Source of the DNA: Escherichia phage vB-Eco-KMB14
Strand: one strand, 5' to 3'
Length of the DNA stretch: 44,563 nt
Sequence record: OR424384.1
In this document: positions 3,173 through 43,965 of the stretch, in pieces
Layout: each line of letters begins with the position of its first letter
How positions within the stretch are numbered: the stretch's first letter is position 1
The notes under the pieces: generated by a model
Told to the model about the DNA's origin: nothing
The model's input: only the letters and a program-made list of their open reading frames with translations
Database searches by the model: none
Made by a program: the position numbers and the translations under genes

Positions 3173-5800
3173 ATGCAAGACCTACACGCTATTCAACTTC
3201 AACTTGAAGAAGAAATGTTTAACGGAGGTATCCGTCGCTTTGAAGCGGACCAACAACGCCAGATTGCATCCGGTAATGAATCCGACACGGCATGGAATCG
3301 CCGCTTATTGTCTGAGTTAATCGCGCCAATGGCTGAAGGCATTCAGGCATACAAGGAAGAGTATGAAGGTAAAAGAGGCCGTGCACCGCGTGCATTAGCT
3401 TTCATTAACTGCGTAGAAAACGAAGTGGCAGCATATATCACGATGAAAATCGTTATGGATATGCTGAACACGGATGTAACCTTGCAGGCTATAGCCATGA
3501 ATGTAGCTGACCGCATTGAGGACCAAGTACGTTTTAGCAAGCTGGAAGGTCACGCCGCCAAATACTTTGAGAAAGTTAAGAAGTCACTTAAGGCAAGTAA
3601 GACTAAATCATATCGCCATGCGCACAACGTAGCGGTCGTGGCTGAGAAGTCAGTAGCTGACCGTGACGCTGATTTCTCTCGCTGGGAGGCGTGGCCTAAA
3701 GATACCTTGCTACAAATCGGTATGACCTTGCTAGAAATACTGGAAAATAGTGTATTCTTCAATGGTCAGCCTGTCTTTCTTCGCACCTTGCGCACTAATG
3801 GTGGCAAGCATGGCGTTTACTACTTACAGACTAGCGAACACGTGGGTGAATGGATAACTGCATTTAAAGAGCACGTAGCTCAGCTGAGTCCAGCCTATGC
3901 GCCTTGCGTTATTCCTCCTCGTCCGTGGGTTTCTCCGTTTAATGGTGGCTTCCATACCGAGAAAGTGGCGAGTCGTATTCGTCTGGTTAAAGGAAACCGC
4001 GAGCACGTCCGCAAGCTGACCAAAAAGCAAATGCCAGCGGTTTACAAGGCTGTTAACGCTTTGCAGGCGACTAAGTGGCAGGTTAATAAAGAGGTTTTGC
4101 AGGTAGTAGAGGACGTTATCCGTCTCGACCTTGGTTATGGTGTGCCTTCCTTTAAACCGCTCATCGACCGTGAGAACAAGCCAGCTAATCCAGTGCCGTT
4201 AGAGTTCCAGCACCTGCGAGGCCGTGAACTTAAAGAGATGCTAACGCCGGAACAATGGCAAGCCTTCATCAACTGGAAAGGCGAATGTACCAAGCTGTAT
4301 ACCGCTGAAACTAAGCGCGGCAGCAAGTCGGCGGCAACCGTTCGTATGGTCGGGCAGGCCCGTAAATACAGCCAGTTTGACGCAATATACTTCGTGTATG
4401 CACTGGATAGCCGCTCACGCGTTTATGCGCAATCTAGCACACTCTCACCGCAATCAAATGACTTAGGCAAGGCTTTACTACGCTTTACCGAAGGGCAGAC
4501 CATAAACAGCACTGAGGCGCTTAAGTGGTTTTTGGTGAACGGGGCAAATAACTGGGGCTGGGATAAGAAAACTTTTGACGTGCGTACCGCTAACGTGCTG
4601 GATGGCGAATTTCAAGACATGTGCCGCGACATTGCAGCCGACCCGCTGACCTTCACTCAATGGGTAAATGCTGATTCCCCTTATGGCTTCCTTGCATGGT
4701 GCTTTGAATATGCGCGTTATCTGGATGCACTGGACGAAGGAACGCAAGACCAATTCATGACGCACCTACCCGTCCATCAAGATGGTAGTTGCTCTGGTAT
4801 CCAGCACTATAGCGCGATGTTACGCGATGAGGTAGGTGCGAAAGCAGTAAACCTTAAGCCTTCTGACTCCCCTCAAGATATTTATGGCGCGGTTGCGCAG
4901 GTTGTTATCCAGAAGAATTACGCCTACATGAATGCAGACGATGCAGTGACTTTCACATCCGGAAGCGTCACACTTACAGGTGCAGAACTGCGTAGCATGG
5001 CTAGTGCGTGGGATATGATAGGAATCACTCGCGGCCTGACCAAAAAGCCCGTAATGACACTACCTTATGGCAGCACACGTCTAACCTGCCGTGAGTCAGT
5101 GATTGATTATATCGTTGATTTAGAAGAAAAAGAGGCCCAACGAGCTATTGCGGAAGGGCGTACCGCCAATCCTGTACATCCTTTTGATAATGACCGTAAG
5201 GACAGCCTGACACCTGGCGCAGCTTATAACTATATGACAGCTTTAATCTGGCCTTCTATTTCGGAAGTGGTTAAAGCTCCTATAGTGGCAATGAAAATGA
5301 TTCGTCAGCTTGCCCGTTTCGCAGCTAAAAGGAATGAAGGCTTAGAGTATACCTTGCCTACTGGCTTCATCTTGCAACAAAAGATTATGGCTACTGATAT
5401 GCTCCGCGTATCCACTTGCCTGATGGGAGAAATCAAGATGAGTCTACAGATTGAAACGGACGTAGTGGATGAAACGGCTATGATGGGCGCTGCTGCTCCT
5501 AACTTTGTGCATGGTCATGATGCCAGTCACCTTATCTTAACAGTCTGCGACCTTGTTGATAAAGGGATTACATCTATCGCAGTCATTCATGATTCTTTCG
5601 GTACTCACGCAGGCCGTACAGCCGATCTTCGTGATAGCTTAAGGGCAGAAATGGTGAAGATGTATCAAGGCCGTAATGCCCTGCAAAGCCTGTTAGATGA
5701 GCATGAAGAACGCTGGTTAGTAGACACCGGAATCCAAGTGCCAGAGCAAGGAGAGTTTGACCTTAACGAAATCTTAGTATCTGACTATTGCTTCGCATAA
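3173..5800 (+). CDS. T7-like single-subunit DNA-dependent RNA polymerase (875 aa)
   Basis: Size and motifs typical of T7 RNAP (HDSFGT motif C, PYGS region, C-terminal ...FA); RBS ctaggag. Confidence 0.95.
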
Positions 5801-35653: not shown

Positions 35654-35848
35654 ATGATTAACTCCGAACTGGTAGATAGTGGTGTGAAGCTTGCGCCACC
35701 TGCACTCGTATCAGGTGGGTACTTCCTCGGTATCAGTTGGGATAATTGGGTGTTAATAGCAACATTCATTTATACCGTGTTGCAAATTGGGGACTGGTTT
35801 TATAATAAGTTCAAGATTTGGAGGGAGAAGCGTGAGCGTACACAATAA
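35654..35848 (+). CDS. Putative holin (64 aa, single TM, charged C-terminus)
   Basis: Strong RBS aaggagg; hydrophobic core WVLIATFIYTVLQI and C-terminus KIWREKRERTQ; same position as T7 gp17.5. Confidence 0.55.
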   Translation: MINSELVDSGVKLAPPALVSGGYFLGISWDNWVLIATFIYTVLQIGDWFYNKFKIWREKRERTQ

Positions 35849-36131
35849 ACATGCAGCTACAGAGGATGAGGTTGGCATTCTGCATGGTGCTATTACCAAA
35901 ATCTTCAATAAAAAAGCACAGGCAATACTGGACACTATAGAAGAAGACCCTGATGCAGCATTACATTTAGTGTCTGGTAAGGATATTGGTGCGATGTGTA
36001 AGTGGGTTCTTGATAACGGCATTACCGCCACACCTGCTGCACAGCAGGAAGAGTCCAAGTTATCTAAGCGCCTCAAGGCTATCCGAGAGGCATCCAGTGG
36101 TAAGATAATTCAATTCACTAAGGAGGATTGA
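35832..36131 (+). CDS. Putative terminase small subunit (about 99 aa, GTG start)
   Basis: GTG at 35832 follows RBS ggaggga; lies directly upstream of and overlapping the large terminase. Confidence 0.5.
   Translation: MSVHNKHAATEDEVGILHGAITKIFNKKAQAILDTIEEDPDAALHLVSGKDIGAMCKWVLDNGITATPAAQQEESKLSKRLKAIREASSGKIIQFTKED
35923..35943 (+). promoter_or_regulatory. Phage-RNAP promoter-like sequence embedded in the small terminase gene (CAATACTGGACACTATAGAAG)
   Basis: Core conserved; the -17 to -13 region diverges. Confidence 0.35.
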
Positions 36132-38029
36132 TGGCTAAGGCAAGAGAATCACAAGCGGAGGCTCTTGCCAGATGGGAGATGCTACAGGAGTTACAGCAGG
36201 CCTTTCCTTACACAGCGGAAGGTTTGCTTCTCTTTGCAGATACAGTTATTCATAACTTAATTGCAGGCAACCCTCATCTGATTCGTATGCAGGCGGATAT
36301 CTTGAAGTTCCTATTTTACGGACACAAGTACCGCCTCATCGAAGCGCCTCGTGGTATCGCTAAGACAACACTATCAGCAATCTATACGGTATTCCGTATT
36401 ATTCATGAACCGCATAAGCGTATCATGGTTGTGTCCCAAAACGCCAAGCGAGCAGAGGAAATCGCAGGTTGGGTAGTTAAAATCTTCCGTGGCTTAGACT
36501 TTCTTGAGTTTATGCTGCCGGATATCTACGCTGGGGACCGTGCATCCGTTAAGGCGTTTGAGATTCATTACACCCTACGTGGTAGTGATAAGTCTCCTTC
36601 TGTATCCTGTTACTCAATCGAAGCAGGTATGCAGGGTGCTCGTGCTGATATTATTCTAGCGGATGACGTAGAGTCGATGCAGAATGCTCGTACGGCAGCG
36701 GGCCGTGCCTTGCTTGAGGAACTGACTAAGGAGTTTGAATCTATCAACCAGTTTGGGGATATCATTTACCTTGGTACACCTCAGAACGTAAACTCTATCT
36801 ACAACAACCTACCTGCTCGTGGTTACTCTGTTCGTATCTGGACTGCGCGTTACCCTTCAGTAGAGCAAGAGCAATGTTATGGCGACTTCCTTGCACCTAT
36901 GATTGTTCAAGATATGAAGGACAACCCAGCACTTCGCTCAGGGTACGGGTTGGATGGTAATAGTGGTGCACCTTGTGCCCCTGAAATGTATGATGATGAA
37001 GTCCTGATTGAGAAGGAAATCTCTCAGGGTGCTGCTAAGTTCCAGCTTCAGTTCATGCTTAACACTCGCATGATGGATGCTGACAGATACCCATTACGCC
37101 TGAACAATCTAATCTTCACCTCGTTTGGTACAGAGGAAGTCCCTGTGATGCCTACGTGGAGTAATGATTCCATAAACATCATTGGTGATGCACCTAAGTA
37201 TGGTAACAAGCCTACGGATTTCATGTACAGACCTGTAGCTCGCCCATACGAATGGGGTGCTGTCTCCCGCAAGATTATGTATATTGACCCTGCGGGTGGT
37301 GGTAAGAACGGAGATGAGACGGGTGTAGCCATCGTATTCCTGCACGGCACATTCATTTATGTGTATCAGTGCTTTGGTGTACCTGGCGGATACCGAGAGT
37401 CGTCCCTGAATCGCATTGTGCAGGCCGCAAAGCAGGCGGGTGTTAAAGAGGTATTCATTGAGAAGAACTTTGGTCATGGCGCGTTTGAGGCGGTAATTAA
37501 GCCGTACTTTGAACGAGAGTGGCCTGTAACTCTGGAAGAGGATTACGCCACCGGACAGAAAGAATTGCGTATCATTGAGACGCTGGAGCCGCTCATGGCA
37601 GCCCATAGGCTTATCTTCAATGCAGAGATGGTGAAGTCAGACTTTGAGTCGGTACAGCACTATCCGCTTGAACTACGCATGTCCTACAGTCTTTTCAATC
37701 AAATGTCGAACATAACGATTGAGAAGAACAGCCTCCGGCACGATGACCGCCTAGACGCCCTGTATGGCGCTATACGGCAATTAACTTCTCAGATAGACTA
37801 TGACGAGGTTACACGGATTAATCGCCTCAGAGCGCAGGAGATGCGAGATTACATCCATGCTATGAACACACCTCATCTACGCAGGGCAATGCTATATGGG
37901 GATTACGGTACTGAGCGAAGAGTGACCAACACTTCCGTAGCGATGCAGCAGCGAGTTTACGGGCAGAACTACCGAAATAAATCGGCAAGCAGAAATACAC
38001 TTTCTGCAAGGATTTCAAGGACTTATTAA
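36128..38029 (+). CDS. Terminase large subunit (633 aa)
   Basis: Walker A-like PRGIAKTT; size and position as T7 gp19; RBS aaggagg. Confidence 0.9.
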   Translation: MMAKARESQAEALARWEMLQELQQAFPYTAEGLLLFADTVIHNLIAGNPHLIRMQADILKFLFYGHKYRLIEAPRGIAKTTLSAIYTVFRIIHEPHKRIMVVSQNAKRAEEIAGWVVKIFRGLDFLEFMLPDIYAGDRASVKAFEIHYTLRGSDKSPSVSCYSIEAGMQGARADIILADDVESMQNARTAAGRALLEELTKEFESINQFGDIIYLGTPQNVNSIYNNLPARGYSVRIWTARYPSVEQEQCYGDFLAPMIVQDMKDNPALRSGYGLDGNSGAPCAPEMYDDEVLIEKEISQGAAKFQLQFMLNTRMMDADRYPLRLNNLIFTSFGTEEVPVMPTWSNDSINIIGDAPKYGNKPTDFMYRPVARPYEWGAVSRKIMYIDPAGGGKNGDETGVAIVFLHGTFIYVYQCFGVPGGYRESSLNRIVQAAKQAGVKEVFIEKNFGHGAFEAVIKPYFEREWPVTLEEDYATGQKELRIIETLEPLMAAHRLIFNAEMVKSDFESVQHYPLELRMSYSLFNQMSNITIEKNSLRHDDRLDALYGAIRQLTSQIDYDEVTRINRLRAQEMRDYIHAMNTPHLRRAMLYGDYGTERRVTNTSVAMQQRVYGQNYRNKSASRNTLSARISRTY

Positions 38030-38048
38030 TTACTGGACACTATAGAAG
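38028..38048 (+). promoter_or_regulatory. Phage-RNAP promoter after the terminase gene
   Basis: AATTACTGGACACTATAGAAG; its first 24 transcribed nt resemble the leader of the 12891 promoter. Confidence 0.7.
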
Positions 38049-38186
38049 GAAGGCCCAGATAATAAGAGAAAATAATAGGTAATATATAGGTTAACCTAGG
38101 TTATATAGATATGCCTTAGTATGGGTGTACTCCTGTACACCCTATTCATTACTACCTTACTATATTTACATAATAGGAGAGAGACA

Positions 38187-38465
38187 ATGGCTAATGATTA
38201 TAGTAGTCAACCATTAACAGGTAAGTCTAAGAGAAAGCAGGTACAACCTGTAAGTGAAGAACTAATGCTTCCGGTAATCAAAAAAGAGGAAGCTAGTAAG
38301 AAAAGCAATGTCATTAATGATGCCACCAAATCAGGTAAACAGAAAGGGGCCATGGTGTGCCTTGAAGTGGAAGGTGGTGTATTGAAGATTGCTATCGCGG
38401 TTGATGGCAAAGAAGATTCAGAGTGGAAGTTAGTAACAGTGGAACCAGCTGTTAACCCAGTTTAA
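38187..38465 (+). CDS. Small hypothetical protein, paralog 1 (92 aa)
   Basis: ATG at 38187 follows RBS aggaga; shares the SGKQKGAMVxLE block with the next ORF. Confidence 0.6.
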   Translation: MANDYSSQPLTGKSKRKQVQPVSEELMLPVIKKEEASKKSNVINDATKSGKQKGAMVCLEVEGGVLKIAIAVDGKEDSEWKLVTVEPAVNPV

Positions 38466-38483
38466 GATAAGGAGGAAGATTAC

Positions 38484-38777
38484 ATGGCTAAATATGGTAC
38501 TACAGGTTCTGTTACTGGTCAGGCTTTTCGAGTAAAAGCAGTACAAACTATTGCAACGGCAATCCCTATGCCTGTTGTTAAAGAAGCAGACCTTAAGAGT
38601 AAAGATCACCCTATCAACATCAAACACCTGTCAGGTAAGCAGAAAGGTGCAATGGTTGCTCTTGAGAAAGATGACACAACCATGCATATTGCTGTTGCAC
38701 GTGGCAGTGAACCAACAGACCCATGGGATGTAACTGGTATGGAAGGGGCAGCTGTCACTCCAGCAGGTGGAGAATAA
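38484..38777 (+). CDS. Small hypothetical protein, paralog 2 (97 aa)
   Basis: RBS aaggagg; shared block HLSGKQKGAMVALEKDD...IAVA. Confidence 0.65.
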   Translation: MAKYGTTGSVTGQAFRVKAVQTIATAIPMPVVKEADLKSKDHPINIKHLSGKQKGAMVALEKDDTTMHIAVARGSEPTDPWDVTGMEGAAVTPAGGE

Positions 38778-39121
38778 TGCTTAACAAATACTTCAAGCGC
38801 CGTGAGTTCGCTTGCCGTTGTGGGTGCGGTACATCCACTGTTGATGCTGAATTACTACAGGTAGTCACAGATGTGCGTGAGCACTTTGGCTCTCCTGTAG
38901 TTATCACTTCGGGGCATCGCTGTGCTAAGCACAATGCTAATGTAGGAGGAGCTAAGAACTCCATGCATCTTACTGGTAAGGCTGCTGACATTAAGGTGTC
39001 TGGTGTTGGCCCAATGGAGGTACGTGCATACCTCTGCAATAAATACCATGATAAGTACGGTATTGGTGCTTATCCTACTTTTACCCATATCGACGTTAGA
39101 GATAACAAAGCCAGATGGTAA
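38777..39121 (+). CDS. Endolysin, zinc peptidase M15 (L-Ala-D-Glu peptidase / D-Ala-D-Ala carboxypeptidase-like), 114 aa
   Basis: SGHRC...HN...S.H.TGKAAD signature of M15 peptidases; ATG at 38777 overlaps the upstream stop. Confidence 0.75.
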   Translation: MLNKYFKRREFACRCGCGTSTVDAELLQVVTDVREHFGSPVVITSGHRCAKHNANVGGAKNSMHLTGKAADIKVSGVGPMEVRAYLCNKYHDKYGIGAYPTFTHIDVRDNKARW

Positions 39122-39229
39122 GATGCATTGAATGGTGTGAACGCATGGTTGCTAAGGCTTCAGAGGAAGGTAACTATGAAGATTGGCAGAACTACTCAAC
39201 TTTATTAGCACAATGGAAAGGGAGGTGCA

Positions 39230-39716: not shown

Positions 39717-39797
39717 AGATAAGATAGCGCCGTTCTTTTGAGCGGCCTATTACTAGCCAATCTTCATAGGGAGGGTTGGAAAGTAATAGGAGATAGC

Positions 39798-41696
39798 ATG
39801 GCTAAATTAACCAAACCTAATACTGAAGGAATCTTGCATAAAGGACAATCGTTGTATGAGTACCTTGATGCGAGAGTTTTAACATCAAAGCCGTTTGGTG
39901 CTGCAGGTGACGCCACTACTGATGATACGGAGGTTATAGCTGCTTCATTAAACTCTCAGAAAGCTGTCACAGTCTCAGATGGTGTATTCTCTAGTTCTGG
40001 TATTAATAGTAATTACTGTAACTTAGACGGTAGGGGTAGTGGCGTGCTAAGTCACCGTTCCAGTACAGGTAACTACTTAGTATTTAACAATCTACGTGCA
40101 GGTCGCTTAAGTAATATTACGGTAGAAAGTAATAAGGCGACTGATACAACTCAGGGACAGCAGGTATCTCTTGCTGGTGGAAGTGATGTTACTGTAAGTG
40201 ACGTTAACTTCTCAAACGTTAAAGGTACTGGTTTCAGTTTAATCGCATACCCTAATGATGCGCCACCTGATGGACTTATGATTAAAGGCATTCGAGGTAG
40301 CTATTCCGGCTATGCTACTAATAAGGCAGCCGGGTGTGTACTTGCTGACTCCTCAGTTAACTCCCTCATAGATAACGTCATTGCTAAGAACTACCCTCAG
40401 TTCGGAGCAGTAGAGTTGAAAGGTACAGCCAGTTATAACATAGTCAGTAATGTTATAGGGGCAGATTGCCAGCATGTAACTTACAACGGCACTGAAGGGC
40501 CAATAGCTCCTTCTAATAACCTTATCAAGGGGGTGATAGCTAATAACCCTAAGTATGCAGCGGTTGTTGCAGGCAAAGGAAGTACGAACTTAATCTCAGA
40601 CGTGCTCGTAGATTACTCAACTTCTGATGCTAGGCAGGCTCATGGTGTTACCGTAGAGGGGTCTGATAACGTCATAAATAATGTGCTTATGTCAGGATGT
40701 GATGGTACTAACTCTTTAGGACAAGGGCAGACTGCTACAATTGCACGCTTTATAGGTACAGCTAATAACAACTATGCGTCTGTATTTCCTAGCTACAGTG
40801 CTACAGGTGTTATTACTTTCGAATCCGGCTCTACCCGTAACTTCGTAGAGGTAAAGCACCCTGGTAGGAGAAACGACATTCTCAGTTCTGCTAGTACTAT
40901 TGACGGTGCAGCTACTATTGACGGCACTAATAATAGTAACGTAGTGCACGCACCTGCCTTAGGGCAGTACATAGGTAGTATGTCAGGTAGGTTCGAATGG
41001 CGGATTAAGTCCATGTCACTCCCTTCAGGCGTTCTTACTTCTGCTGATAAGTACAGAATGCTTGGGGATGGTGCTGTGTCATTAGCTTTAGGTGGGGGAA
41101 CTTCTTCTCAAGTTCGCCTATTTACTTCTGATGGTACTTCTCGGACAGTGTCCCTCACCAACGGTAACGTGCGTCTTTCTACCAGTAGCACAGGCTTTTT
41201 GCAGTTAGGTGCTGATGCAATGACCCCAGATAGTACTGGTACATATGCATTAGGTTCCGCCAGACGGGTATGGTCTGGCGGTTTTACTCAAGCAGCATTC
41301 ACTGTTACCTCAGATGCTCGGTGTAAAACAGAACCTCTTACTATCTCAGATGCCTTACTGGATGCTTGGTCTGAAGTTGACTTTGTGCAGTTTCAGTATT
41401 TGGATCGTGTTGAGGAGAAGGGTGCAGACTCAGCTAGATGGCACTTCGGTATCATCGCTCAGCGAGCTAAGGAGGCTTTCGAACGTCACGGTATAGATGC
41501 ACATCGCTATGGCTTCTTGTGCTTCGACAGTTGGGATGATGTATACGAGGAAGATGCCACTGGCTCTCGTAAACTGATTACACCAGCAGGTTCCCGCTAC
41601 GGTATTCGTTACGAGGAAGTACTGATATTAGAGGCTGCGTTGATGCGGAGGACTATCAAGCGTATGCAGGAAGCACTAGCTTCCCTGCCTAAGTGA
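39798..41696 (+). CDS. Tailspike 1: beta-helix depolymerase-like protein with C-terminal intramolecular chaperone (peptidase S74-like) domain, 632 aa
   Basis: ATG at 39798 follows RBS aggaga. Gly/Ser/Thr/Asn-rich repetitive body; C-terminal SDARCKTE...HFGIIAQ...YEEVLILEAAL resembles the auto-cleaving chaperone domain of endosialidase/K5-lyase-type tailspikes. Confidence 0.8.
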   Translation: MAKLTKPNTEGILHKGQSLYEYLDARVLTSKPFGAAGDATTDDTEVIAASLNSQKAVTVSDGVFSSSGINSNYCNLDGRGSGVLSHRSSTGNYLVFNNLRAGRLSNITVESNKATDTTQGQQVSLAGGSDVTVSDVNFSNVKGTGFSLIAYPNDAPPDGLMIKGIRGSYSGYATNKAAGCVLADSSVNSLIDNVIAKNYPQFGAVELKGTASYNIVSNVIGADCQHVTYNGTEGPIAPSNNLIKGVIANNPKYAAVVAGKGSTNLISDVLVDYSTSDARQAHGVTVEGSDNVINNVLMSGCDGTNSLGQGQTATIARFIGTANNNYASVFPSYSATGVITFESGSTRNFVEVKHPGRRNDILSSASTIDGAATIDGTNNSNVVHAPALGQYIGSMSGRFEWRIKSMSLPSGVLTSADKYRMLGDGAVSLALGGGTSSQVRLFTSDGTSRTVSLTNGNVRLSTSSTGFLQLGADAMTPDSTGTYALGSARRVWSGGFTQAAFTVTSDARCKTEPLTISDALLDAWSEVDFVQFQYLDRVEEKGADSARWHFGIIAQRAKEAFERHGIDAHRYGFLCFDSWDDVYEEDATGSRKLITPAGSRYGIRYEEVLILEAALMRRTIKRMQEALASLPK

Positions 41697-41781: not shown

Positions 41782-43965
41782 ATGCTTCAAAGATTAGGGG
41801 CAATGTTTGTTCGGTACAAAAATAAAGTAGGTAATGCTATCGAGCGTACACTACAAAGTAAATTACAGGATGTAGTCAGTGTAAAGGATTATGGTGCTAT
41901 TGGTGATGGAGTATATCGTTCACTTGGTGCTAAATTTACCACGTTAAGTATGGCACAAGTAGTATACCCGCATGCGGAAAGTTTAACTCAATCGCAAGAT
42001 TGGGCGGCTATTCAGGCTGCACTTAATTCTCACTCAAAAGTGTACATTCCAGCAGGTAAGTACATGCTATCTGATACCATTGAGATGCGCGGCGGTCAAA
42101 CTCTGCAAGGTGACGGTATTGATTCTTGGGTTGCAGGTTATGCTGGGTTTGTAAAAGATAATCAAGGCACTCACCTCATAATGGTGGGAGATGGAAATAA
42201 GAAGTATACATTAGATCATGTATCTAACTTCGATGTAGAAGGTGGTGTCATAGACAACCCAGCTAAGAGTGACGCTTATACTGCCACGGCACCTTCCCCT
42301 AATTACTCATTTACTAACTTCACTAATGCTAACGCCTCTGGTGCACAACGTGCTACATTGAAATCTTTCAGCGTAGCATTACGTTGCACAGGTCACGGTG
42401 GTGTTTACCTTCGTGACTTCCGTATTGTGCCTAATCACAGAGGGCAAGAAGGTTATAAGGATGAGTTGTCAACTGCATTAGGGGACGCATGGGATGTAGG
42501 TATTTGGCTGGAGAATACATCTGACTCAGTGTTATCTTCTGTGCAAGCAGTAGGTTACTGGCGCATTGCAGGTGTTATGAAGACTTGTATACCACAAGAG
42601 GGTTCCTTTGTTGGTGGAGAGCGTGATAGGATATACAATTGCACATTACAAGGTTATCGTGGCTTCTTAGCACGTTCGCATGATACTTACCAAGTAGAAG
42701 AAGTATCAGGTAACACTGTATCGATTAAGTGGTCTGCATCTCACACTTTCGAACCTTCTGGTAAAGTTCGTATCCAAGGGAAAGACCGTAGTTATACTAG
42801 CCTGTCTGTATCTGGTGACAAATTAGTTTTCAATGGTATTGACGATGTATCAGGTATTAATACCAATAGCTATGTGAGAGTTTCAGGGTCTTCATTCGGA
42901 ATGTCTGCTACTCAACTAAATAACACATACATCGCTGCATTAAACCATCATGCTCGCTTGCCAGCAACCTCTAATCTTTTAGATAATAGGTTTTCTACTT
43001 CGGCAGCTTGCTATGAAGTTGCAGGTGAACCAATTCGTGCCATAAAATTATCTAACTGCACTGTCATTACTTGGGATGACATCTTAGGTATGACTGGTGG
43101 TATTAGGGACTTCCAGACGACAGATACTTACTTCGAGTCTCAGCCTTTCCGTACTTCTGTGCAAGGCTTGGCAAGCACCACACAACCTGCTGGTTCTCGC
43201 ATGATTGCACTTCGTGGACGTCAAGGTTCTAAAACTACAGGCTATCAAGCTATCGGTTGTACTTATGGGCCGGGTGTAGACCTAAGCCCTCGTTATGAAA
43301 GCGATGTATCTCGTTACACAACTTCCGGTGGTATGTTCAATCCAAGAGAAGATTTGAACACAACTAAGCAGTTACCAATGAGGCAAGACGCTACTGAGCT
43401 ATCTTCTACTTCTGCCTTATTCCTTACACATGCTGTAGGTGGGAAGGCCTATGTTGGCGCTACCTCTGGTGATGCAACGCTTCAATCTAGAACTGGATCA
43501 TTGAATATCCAATCAGGACTTCGTGTACGCATTGGTGGCACTGATGGTAGTGGTTGGTACATTGCTGACAGTGCTAAGTTGACACCTACTGCTGACAATG
43601 CAAGGGCTTGTGGACAGCCTAATGGACGATGGACTGTTGTCTATGCTGTTAATGGTACAATCCAGACTTCTGATGGTAGATTCAAGGAAATCCTTGAGAT
43701 TGAACAGGCAGAACTTGATGCTGGTCTTGAATTATCAGCAAACCTAATTAAGTATCGGTGGAATGGGGAAGATAAAATTCACTTTGGTTGCATAGCACAA
43801 GAAGTGATGTTAATACTGGAGAAACATGGCCTAGACCCATTACAATATGATATGGTTCAGTATGATGAGGAGGCAGACATCTTTGGGGTAAACTATGCTG
43901 AACTCAACAGCTTCTGTATTGCAGCATTATCGAGGAAGCTAAATGCCATTAATCAGATCAGTTAA
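41782..43965 (+). CDS. Tailspike 2: pectate-lyase-fold depolymerase-like protein with C-terminal intramolecular chaperone domain, 727 aa
   Basis: Strong RBS aaggagg; N-terminal DYGAIGDG motif typical of pectate-lyase-type phage depolymerases; C-terminal SDGRFKE...HFGCIAQ...YAELNSFCIAAL is paralogous to the C-terminus of tailspike 1. Confidence 0.8.
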   Translation: MLQRLGAMFVRYKNKVGNAIERTLQSKLQDVVSVKDYGAIGDGVYRSLGAKFTTLSMAQVVYPHAESLTQSQDWAAIQAALNSHSKVYIPAGKYMLSDTIEMRGGQTLQGDGIDSWVAGYAGFVKDNQGTHLIMVGDGNKKYTLDHVSNFDVEGGVIDNPAKSDAYTATAPSPNYSFTNFTNANASGAQRATLKSFSVALRCTGHGGVYLRDFRIVPNHRGQEGYKDELSTALGDAWDVGIWLENTSDSVLSSVQAVGYWRIAGVMKTCIPQEGSFVGGERDRIYNCTLQGYRGFLARSHDTYQVEEVSGNTVSIKWSASHTFEPSGKVRIQGKDRSYTSLSVSGDKLVFNGIDDVSGINTNSYVRVSGSSFGMSATQLNNTYIAALNHHARLPATSNLLDNRFSTSAACYEVAGEPIRAIKLSNCTVITWDDILGMTGGIRDFQTTDTYFESQPFRTSVQGLASTTQPAGSRMIALRGRQGSKTTGYQAIGCTYGPGVDLSPRYESDVSRYTTSGGMFNPREDLNTTKQLPMRQDATELSSTSALFLTHAVGGKAYVGATSGDATLQSRTGSLNIQSGLRVRIGGTDGSGWYIADSAKLTPTADNARACGQPNGRWTVVYAVNGTIQTSDGRFKEILEIEQAELDAGLELSANLIKYRWNGEDKIHFGCIAQEVMLILEKHGLDPLQYDMVQYDEEADIFGVNYAELNSFCIAALSRKLNAINQIS

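Follow-up and report, generated by a model that had tools for sequence, protein, structure and literature searches.

A tandem pair of small paralogous late proteins in Escherichia phage vB-Eco-KMB14 and their family of putative capsid decoration modules

The cement proteins gpD of phage lambda and SHP of phage 21 are small (about 10-11 kDa) and abundant, and on T=7 capsids they bind as trimers where the lattice has threefold or quasi-threefold symmetry. A flexible N-terminal arm of gpD is ordered only on the capsid. Here, we describe two adjacent genes, termed A and B, from Escherichia phage vB-Eco-KMB14 (sequence record OR424384.1; the whole 44,563-nucleotide (nt) stretch is referred to as the window), whose products of 92 and 97 amino acids (aa) resemble gpD and SHP in being small and, as far as their expression signals suggest, abundant, as well as in an assembly that is probably in threes. 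Each protein also has an N-terminal arm, comparable to the flexible arm of gpD, that is conserved but modelled at low confidence.

Within the Autographiviridae, related solutions to capsid decoration have been described for two phages with T=7 capsids. PhiM1 places an anchor-only "alpha-claw" and an extended "alpha-paw" on its capsid in a manner that depends on lattice position (PMC11440229); Ar-KM, a phiKMV-like phage, carries a pair, gp55 and gp54, with a common anchor motif. As in the family of A and B, these proteins derive from separate genes and share an anchor, which stands alone in one partner and bears a fibre or spike extension in the other. They differ in being helix-turn-helix proteins that form four-helix-bundle dimers, located in PhiM1 on twofold and quasi-twofold axes, whereas the A/B module is predicted to be beta-rich and to pack in threes, and there is no homology between the two. 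T4 Hoc, T5 pb10 and phi29 gp8.5, in turn, are comparable to extended paralogs of A and B found in other phages (gp47 of Klebsiella phage Kp7 and gp48 of Erwinia phage Era103), with their arrangement of an N-terminal capsid anchor and a C-terminal display part. A and B differ from Hoc, pb10 and gp8.5 in that they have no display domain, and their anchor module is unrelated to those of the three proteins.

The closest described system is that of Kp7, a member of the Molineuxvirinae, whose gp45, gp46 and gp47 are true homologs of the pair and, like A and B, are encoded between TerL and an M15 endolysin. Kp7 differs in possessing a third paralog with a C-terminal immunoglobulin (Ig) domain, which has no equivalent in the window. 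Taking the comparisons below together, we consider it fairly probable that A and B are abundant late virion proteins on the outer surface of the T=7 capsid, i.e. decoration or 'minor capsid' proteins, for which we infer a location on the capsid rather than on the tail, a trimeric stoichiometry and a stabilising role.

Genes A and B, their expression signals and their relatives

Gene A extends on the plus strand from an ATG at 38187 to a stop codon at 38463-38465 (38187..38465) and gene B, on the same strand, from an ATG at 38484 to a stop codon at 38775-38777 (38484..38777). They correspond to genes 41 and 42 of phage K1-5, respectively, and represent an A-type (PHROG 2725) and a B-type member of the family, both anchor-only. 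The start of gene A was placed at 38187, and not at the upstream ATG at 38121, because every ortholog begins with MAN(D/G)YS or MSNSYS. A preliminary description of this locus, made from the sequence alone, had proposed that the two genes are tandem paralogs that share a conserved block. Indeed, A and B are true paralogs over their entire length: BLASTP aligned them over 93 aa at 35% identity (E = 8e-15), and their Smith-Waterman score of 127 compares with 26.5 +/- 5.0 for 2000 shuffles (z = 20). Similarity reaches beyond the block on both sides, with the 48 N-terminal residues that precede it giving z = 8.9 on their own (none of 2000 shuffles as high) and the stretch C-terminal to it z = 3.7 (8 of 2000 shuffles as high). 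The block itself (TKSGKQKGAMVCLE in A and HLSGKQKGAMVALE in B) is real and present in both proteins, in the form (T/H)(K/L)SGKQKGAMV(C/A)LE, which shifts the left edge of the originally proposed pattern by one residue. The hydrophobic, beta-like segment that had been pointed out past the block was recovered as a predicted beta-hairpin.

Comparison with K1-5, fTuEco01 and R4596 indicated purifying selection on both genes, with ratios of nonsynonymous to synonymous substitution rates (dN/dS) of 0.25-0.53 for A and 0.19-0.50 for B. Identities to orthologs range from 49 to 98% for A and from 53 to 97% for B; A groups with SP6 gp42 and Kp7 gp45, and B with SP6 gp43 and Kp7 gp46. The phrog_2725 profile matched both window proteins (E = 2.7e-37 for A and 4.2e-45 for B). 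In a family profile built from 41 A- and B-type sequences, the two window proteins included, invariant columns were T11, G12, R16, P30, S50, G51, K52, Q53, A56, A72 and W81. Both A and B thus carry the family signature of T-G...R, followed by P, a loop S-G-K-Q-x-x-A and an invariant Trp near the C-terminus. AlphaFold2 predicted the first 17 residues of B to be disordered and residues 30-90 to form a small beta domain (predicted local distance difference test (pLDDT) score 68.8). No third family copy was found in any of the six frames of the window.

The pair lies behind a mismatch-free promoter core, GGACACTATAGAAG, at 38035-38048, part of a predicted late promoter (38027..38050, plus strand) for an SP6/K1-5-type phage RNA polymerase that would serve A, B and the lysis genes, and ahead of the M15 endolysin gene that begins at 38777, which agrees with the position first reported for it, after a post-terminase promoter and before the endolysin. 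Matches to this core with up to two mismatches number 12 in the window, all on the plus strand, as compared to 0.35 expected by chance; the 12 sites span 5899 to 39716, and one of them, at 35930, is located just 5' of TerL. As likewise reported, each gene has its own strong ribosome-binding site: the sequence reads AGGAGAG for gene A (38175..38181, plus strand; 5 nt from the ATG) and AAGGAGG for gene B (38469..38475, plus strand; 8 nt from the ATG). The late, high-level expression typical of decoration proteins is accordingly present at the level of consensus signals, namely an exact promoter and strong Shine-Dalgarno sites. In addition, the stop codon of B and the ATG of the endolysin overlap in a TAATG (38775-38779), suggesting that translation of the endolysin may be coupled to that of a heavily translated structural gene. 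Where relatives carry a third family gene, it is this third gene, not B, to which the endolysin is coupled. Promoter, paired ribosome-binding sites and putative coupling would all fit an abundant late protein.

Within the 5' leader, a terminator-like scan and RNA folding identified a G+C-rich hairpin, GGGTGTAC-TCCT-GTACACCC (38123..38142, plus strand), which has a perfect 8-bp stem and is positioned ~75 nt 3' of the promoter and 45 nt 5' of gene A. The equivalent hairpin in phage R4596 is annotated as a putative terminator; given that it follows the promoter, it could be a processing or stabilising element instead. The overall stability of the leader fold was not unusual (z = 0.63). An AT-rich near-mirror repeat, TATATAGGTTAACC/TAGGTTATATAG, occupies positions 38084-38112 between promoter and hairpin and includes an HpaI-like (GTTAAC) and an AvrII (CCTAGG) palindrome.

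Relatives of gene B were detected by tblastn in 192 phage records, with hosts that include Escherichia, Klebsiella, Salmonella, Proteus, Erwinia, Pectobacterium, Vibrio, Pseudomonas and Marinomonas. The number of ~90 aa-long modules varies between phages. Three copies each are encoded by SP6 (gp42, gp43 and gp44) and by Kp7 (gp45, gp46 and the N-terminus of the 178-aa gp47, with profile E-values of 2e-24, 5e-22 and 3e-15, respectively), two by Era103 (gp47 and the N-terminus of the 232-aa gp48), and one copy was found in Vibrio phage BD5. In fTuEco01 and R4596, two close Vectrevirus relatives, a third gene, with a product of 225 and 229 aa, respectively, is inserted between B and the endolysin, and the module makes up the first ~80 residues of this product; this gene is absent from the window and from K1-5. 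The family is encoded directly 3' of a T7-type TerL in the window, K1-5, Kp7, SP6, Era103, BD5, CPG1g and Nerthus. The latter two (Marinomonas phage CPG1g and Pseudomonas phage Nerthus) belong to the Colwellvirinae and show the order TerL, short gene, longer gene, and the family spans two subfamilies. In SP6 (AY288927.2), gp44 (81 aa; 3298-3543) aligns to the N-terminal module of the third protein of fTuEco01 and R4596 (E = 3e-10), and the neighbouring gp45 (55 aa; 3566-3733) to the C-terminal ~48 residues of the third protein of R4596 (E = 7e-7). Judged by these alignments, SP6 gp44 and gp45 resemble the remaining ends of a 'head-fibre' gene that has lost its interior.

Fused modules, display extensions and virion data

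A profile scan of 1.84 billion representative proteins returned 228 matches (E <= 0.001), and architectures were counted for the 145 newly found proteins within the best 150 of these. Most frequent was the single module of about 90 aa (85 clusters), with a further 18 clusters comprising a module plus an extension. About 41 clusters were chains between 256 and 407 aa long (mostly 256-302 aa) in which two or three modules were detected, all three in 24 of them. A protein with exactly two modules (205 aa) was represented by 1 cluster, and four or more detected modules by none.

In a rough neighbour-joining tree, the repeats of these chains clustered largely by their position in the chain, with exceptions, which suggests that three non-equivalent slots may have been conserved over time. 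AlphaFold2 modelled one triple fusion of 268 aa (P0211) with a mean pLDDT of 85.4 and a predicted template modelling (pTM) score of 0.82. Because of this pTM score, the triple fusion is understood as one compact body rather than as beads on a string, and it may have a pseudo-threefold symmetry. When A, B and the extended type were compared to fused repeats 1-3, preferences were only weak, A leaning slightly toward repeat 1 and the extended type toward repeat 3.

Metagenomic contigs with triple fusions, obtained through exact-sequence look-ups, measured 0.9-4.2 kb; scans of IMG/VR for triple fusions yielded no relatives. One triple-fusion gene (encoding P0212, contig L008) starts about 320 bp 3' of a T7-type TerL that is 43% identical to the TerL of the window, and a further triple fusion has a separate gene for a module plus extension 3' of it. 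On other contigs, the gene order runs A-fragment, B, extended paralog, M15 endolysin. On contig L007, the expected TerL slot directly 5' of a triple fusion (P0210) holds an HNH_3 homing-endonuclease gene (143-583). Small open reading frames (ORFs) occur directly 3' of triple fusions on four contigs (L007, 1429-1581; L008, 1672-2054; L009, 1001-1156; L014, 1983-2370), with lipobox-like N-termini such as LLSGCSS, LSACSS and LTGCSV. From these motifs, they look like spanin or lipoprotein lysis genes, in which case the fusions would be followed by the same family-to-lysis-cassette order as in the window.

The C-terminal extensions fall into recognisable domain families. That of Kp7 gp47 is assigned to Ig_3/Ig_2 by Pfam, with 'Hoc-like head decoration' as its best PHROGs (4e-23 and 8e-20), and that of Era103 gp48 matches the 'head fiber protein' PHROG (4.5e-11). 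A metagenomic protein, P0277, bears an Sf6-type needle-knob domain (PF16532, 1.7e-30), a domain that is an obligate trimer. As the extensions are Ig, head-fibre-like and knob domains, we take the shared module to act as an anchor for added display domains. A and B both end directly after the module, and neither was found to have a C-terminal Ig, fibre or knob domain. On contig L013, a 214-aa protein without Pfam or PHROG match is encoded (1774-2418) between a 438-aa extended paralog (P0282) and the M15 endolysin, and could act either as an additional accessory protein of the virion or as a chaperone of the extension.

Experimental data exist for Kp7, in whose record (ON148527) gp45 and gp46 are named "minor capsid protein" and gp47 "minor capsid protein with Ig-domain". 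All three were identified by mass spectrometry in sodium dodecyl sulfate-polyacrylamide gel electrophoresis bands of purified virions, and the unrelated podophages Kp9 and Kp11 lack these proteins (10.1101/2024.05.19.594906). Decoration, one of the three roles that the preliminary description had floated, hence gains from the virion-borne Kp7 homologs, from the paralogs with Hoc-like, head-fibre or knob parts and from the triple fusions.

A capsid surface role and its alternatives

The following arrangement would account for these observations. Each protein would amount to a single ~90-aa module, in which a flexible and conserved arm at the N-terminus (T11-G12...R16...P30) is joined to a small beta domain that bears the invariant loop SGKQ-G-A and the one invariant Trp. 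Modules would pack on each other, most likely in threes, giving hetero-oligomers or position-specific homo-oligomers at symmetry or quasi-symmetry sites of the major-capsid-protein lattice, where the arm would become ordered, as in lambda gpD, and where the bound oligomers would probably stabilise the lattice. A and B could conceivably form trimers that contain both proteins, occupy different quasi-equivalent sites as separate homo-oligomers, or alternate in a ring around the hexon (1, 2 and 3 all divide six). The optional third paralog of relatives would use the same module as its anchor for the display of an Ig, a head-fibre-like or a knob part. Of the suggestion that the duplication reflects a "dosage-sensitive or two-partner" function, nothing points to dosage sensitivity; two partners come closer, as paralogs that assemble together. 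With more reserve, we put forward as a possibility that the module is a structurally undescribed decoration fold and forms a three-part unit on T=7 capsids of the Autographiviridae, encoded in each of the possible genetic arrangements: by one gene (as a homo-oligomer), by two or three diverged genes in tandem (as a hetero-oligomer or with occupancy that depends on position) or by one gene for three fused repeats (as a pseudo-trimer). The same module would also be a plug through which phages exchange Ig, head-fibre or knob domains on the head. If so, A and B would take non-equivalent lattice positions and both would be needed for a complete cage. Searches with phmmer for a solved relative of A and B returned nothing usable (a plexin at E = 0.05 being a chance match). 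No likeness in sequence or fold was found to the solved gpD/SHP, Soc, the Dec OB-fold, the Ig domains of Hoc and pb10, the beta-tulip or the alpha-claw, and Pfam and NCBIfam contain no family for A, B or the triple fusion (sub-threshold noise only in NCBIfam).

Several points weigh against placing A and B on the capsid surface. A PDB search with the 41-sequence profile gave 0 matches, that is, no solved capsid structure contains a family member, and the matches that Foldseek produced were weak, confined to the N-terminus and to a handful of large phage proteins of fibre- or enzyme-like character. Modelled as a single protein, B reaches no more than a moderate pLDDT, and two paralogs do not divide evenly into a trimer. 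The sole experimental support is one preprint, on a homolog of roughly 40-50% identity, so that the case for a virion location draws on homologs rather than on the window phage or K1-5. That preprint gives no argument for the name 'capsid' over plain 'virion' (10.1101/2024.05.19.594906). Finally, Ig domains and knobs occur on tail proteins too, and the Ig domain of Kp7 gp47 matches a 'major tail protein' PHROG almost equally well (4.4e-22), along with minor tail-protein PHROGs.

These last matches would suit A and B being tail or neck proteins of the virion, with a module that would attach trimeric appendages of small size to the adaptor, the nozzle or the tailspike complex, A and B themselves serving as fibre-less 'plugs' or spacers. 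Virion association alone fits head and tail equally, the knob of P0277 is a tail-needle domain, and a Marinomonas homolog is labelled 'tail fiber protein'. We nevertheless regard a tail or neck location as unlikely. The authors of the Kp7 virion study chose capsid-protein names, the best PHROGs for the extensions are head decoration and head fibre, and spikes or fibres already have a docking site in the T7-tail-fibre-type adaptor (PF03906, 34682-35644), which leaves an extra docking module without an obvious role. Moreover, a late promoter of their own and very strong ribosome-binding sites suit proteins present in hundreds of copies per particle, not in a few. Non-structural late functions, such as a head or tailspike assembly chaperone, a regulator of the lysis cassette or an inhibitor of host defence, appear more improbable still. 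They would be in keeping with the location of the genes directly 5' of the endolysin and the likely coupling of B to it, with the derivation of the virion data from homologs, and with the general experience that small, fast-evolving paralogous phage proteins are often counter-defence factors. However, homologs are present in purified virions, and fusion of the module to surface-display domains would be senseless for a cytoplasmic regulator. Adjacency to the endolysin is a matter of gene order that is not conserved, a third family gene intervening in relatives. Of the features of lysis-cassette proteins, no credible transmembrane helix, signal peptide or signal-anchor, or lipobox was found in A or B: the grand average of hydropathy is -0.41 for A and -0.26 for B, and the highest 19-residue Kyte-Doolittle values (1.64 and 1.12) fall in the charged segment of the predicted beta-hairpin. 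Lysis regulation, also entertained in the preliminary description, therefore finds no support, and neither does its anti-defence proposal, as the genes are late rather than early, their homologs are virion-borne, and the family is spread over two subfamilies at dN/dS of 0.2-0.5.

Database labels point elsewhere. Many GenBank records, RefSeq and PHROG 2725 present members of the family as acetyl-CoA acetyltransferases, i.e. thiolases, an identity for which propagated annotation is the only argument and which is untenable. Thiolases are proteins of about 390 aa with a two-domain fold and a catalytic Cys/His/Cys set. A and B (92 and 97 aa) have no Pfam match at E <= 1, be it to PF00108/PF02803 or to any other family, and only noise in NCBIfam; B contains zero cysteines and hence no catalytic Cys. 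The label 'Sema domain-containing protein' in phage VEc3 probably stems from the chance match of A to plexin (E = 0.05). The original remark that no characterised function was known for these proteins is accurate. A decoration role on the capsid remains the reading that we favour.

Genomic setting and significance of the family

The window is a Vectrevirus (K1-5-like; Autographiviridae, Molineuxvirinae). From 37900 to 39200, it shares 96-97% identity with Escherichia phages 6948, 6949 and VEc3 and ~92% with K1-5. Upstream of the pair, the tailspike adaptor with its T7-tail-fibre N-terminal domain is followed by a T7-type holin gene (PF10746, 35654-35848), an ORF (35787-36131) that corresponds to K1-5 gene 39 (small terminase subunit in the annotations of SP6, Kp7 and Era103), and the gene for the T7-type TerL (36128-38029). 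Downstream, outside the pair, are the Peptidase_M15_3 endolysin gene (38777..39121, plus strand; PF08291, E = 4.9e-33) and, 3' of it, small ORFs in the position that spanin-type lysis genes have in relatives. A second phage promoter (39703-39716, plus strand) is situated just 5' of the first of two tailspike genes (39738-41696 and 41782-43965). The product of the first has Peptidase_S74, an intramolecular chaperone domain, at its C-terminus. At the N-terminus it is similar to the N-terminal part of another tailspike-like protein, encoded on metagenomic contig L013; this likeness fits exchangeable spikes that would dock via a conserved N-terminal sequence. The second tailspike (727 aa) is shorter than the endosialidase of K1-5.

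If A and B are decoration proteins, the labels "acetyl-CoA acetyltransferase" and "Sema domain" that have spread through SP6/K1-5-like and related records would be corrected, and many of the mislabelled phages are candidates for therapy of infections with E. coli K1, Klebsiella, Salmonella and Proteus. This would not establish a new biological principle, as capsid decoration is already well known; it would add a family of decoration proteins without structural precedent, which makes a good target for cryo-electron microscopy. An anchor of ~90 aa that naturally tolerates Ig, fibre and knob cargos would also offer a handle for phage display and capsid engineering in the T7 supergroup. The series from one gene through two and three genes to three modules in one chain would amount to a compact experiment of nature on the filling of quasi-equivalent sites in a capsid. 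A and B belong to a conserved, widespread and mis-annotated family, whose members are probably capsid accessory proteins of a structurally new type and have an unusual history of fission and fusion.

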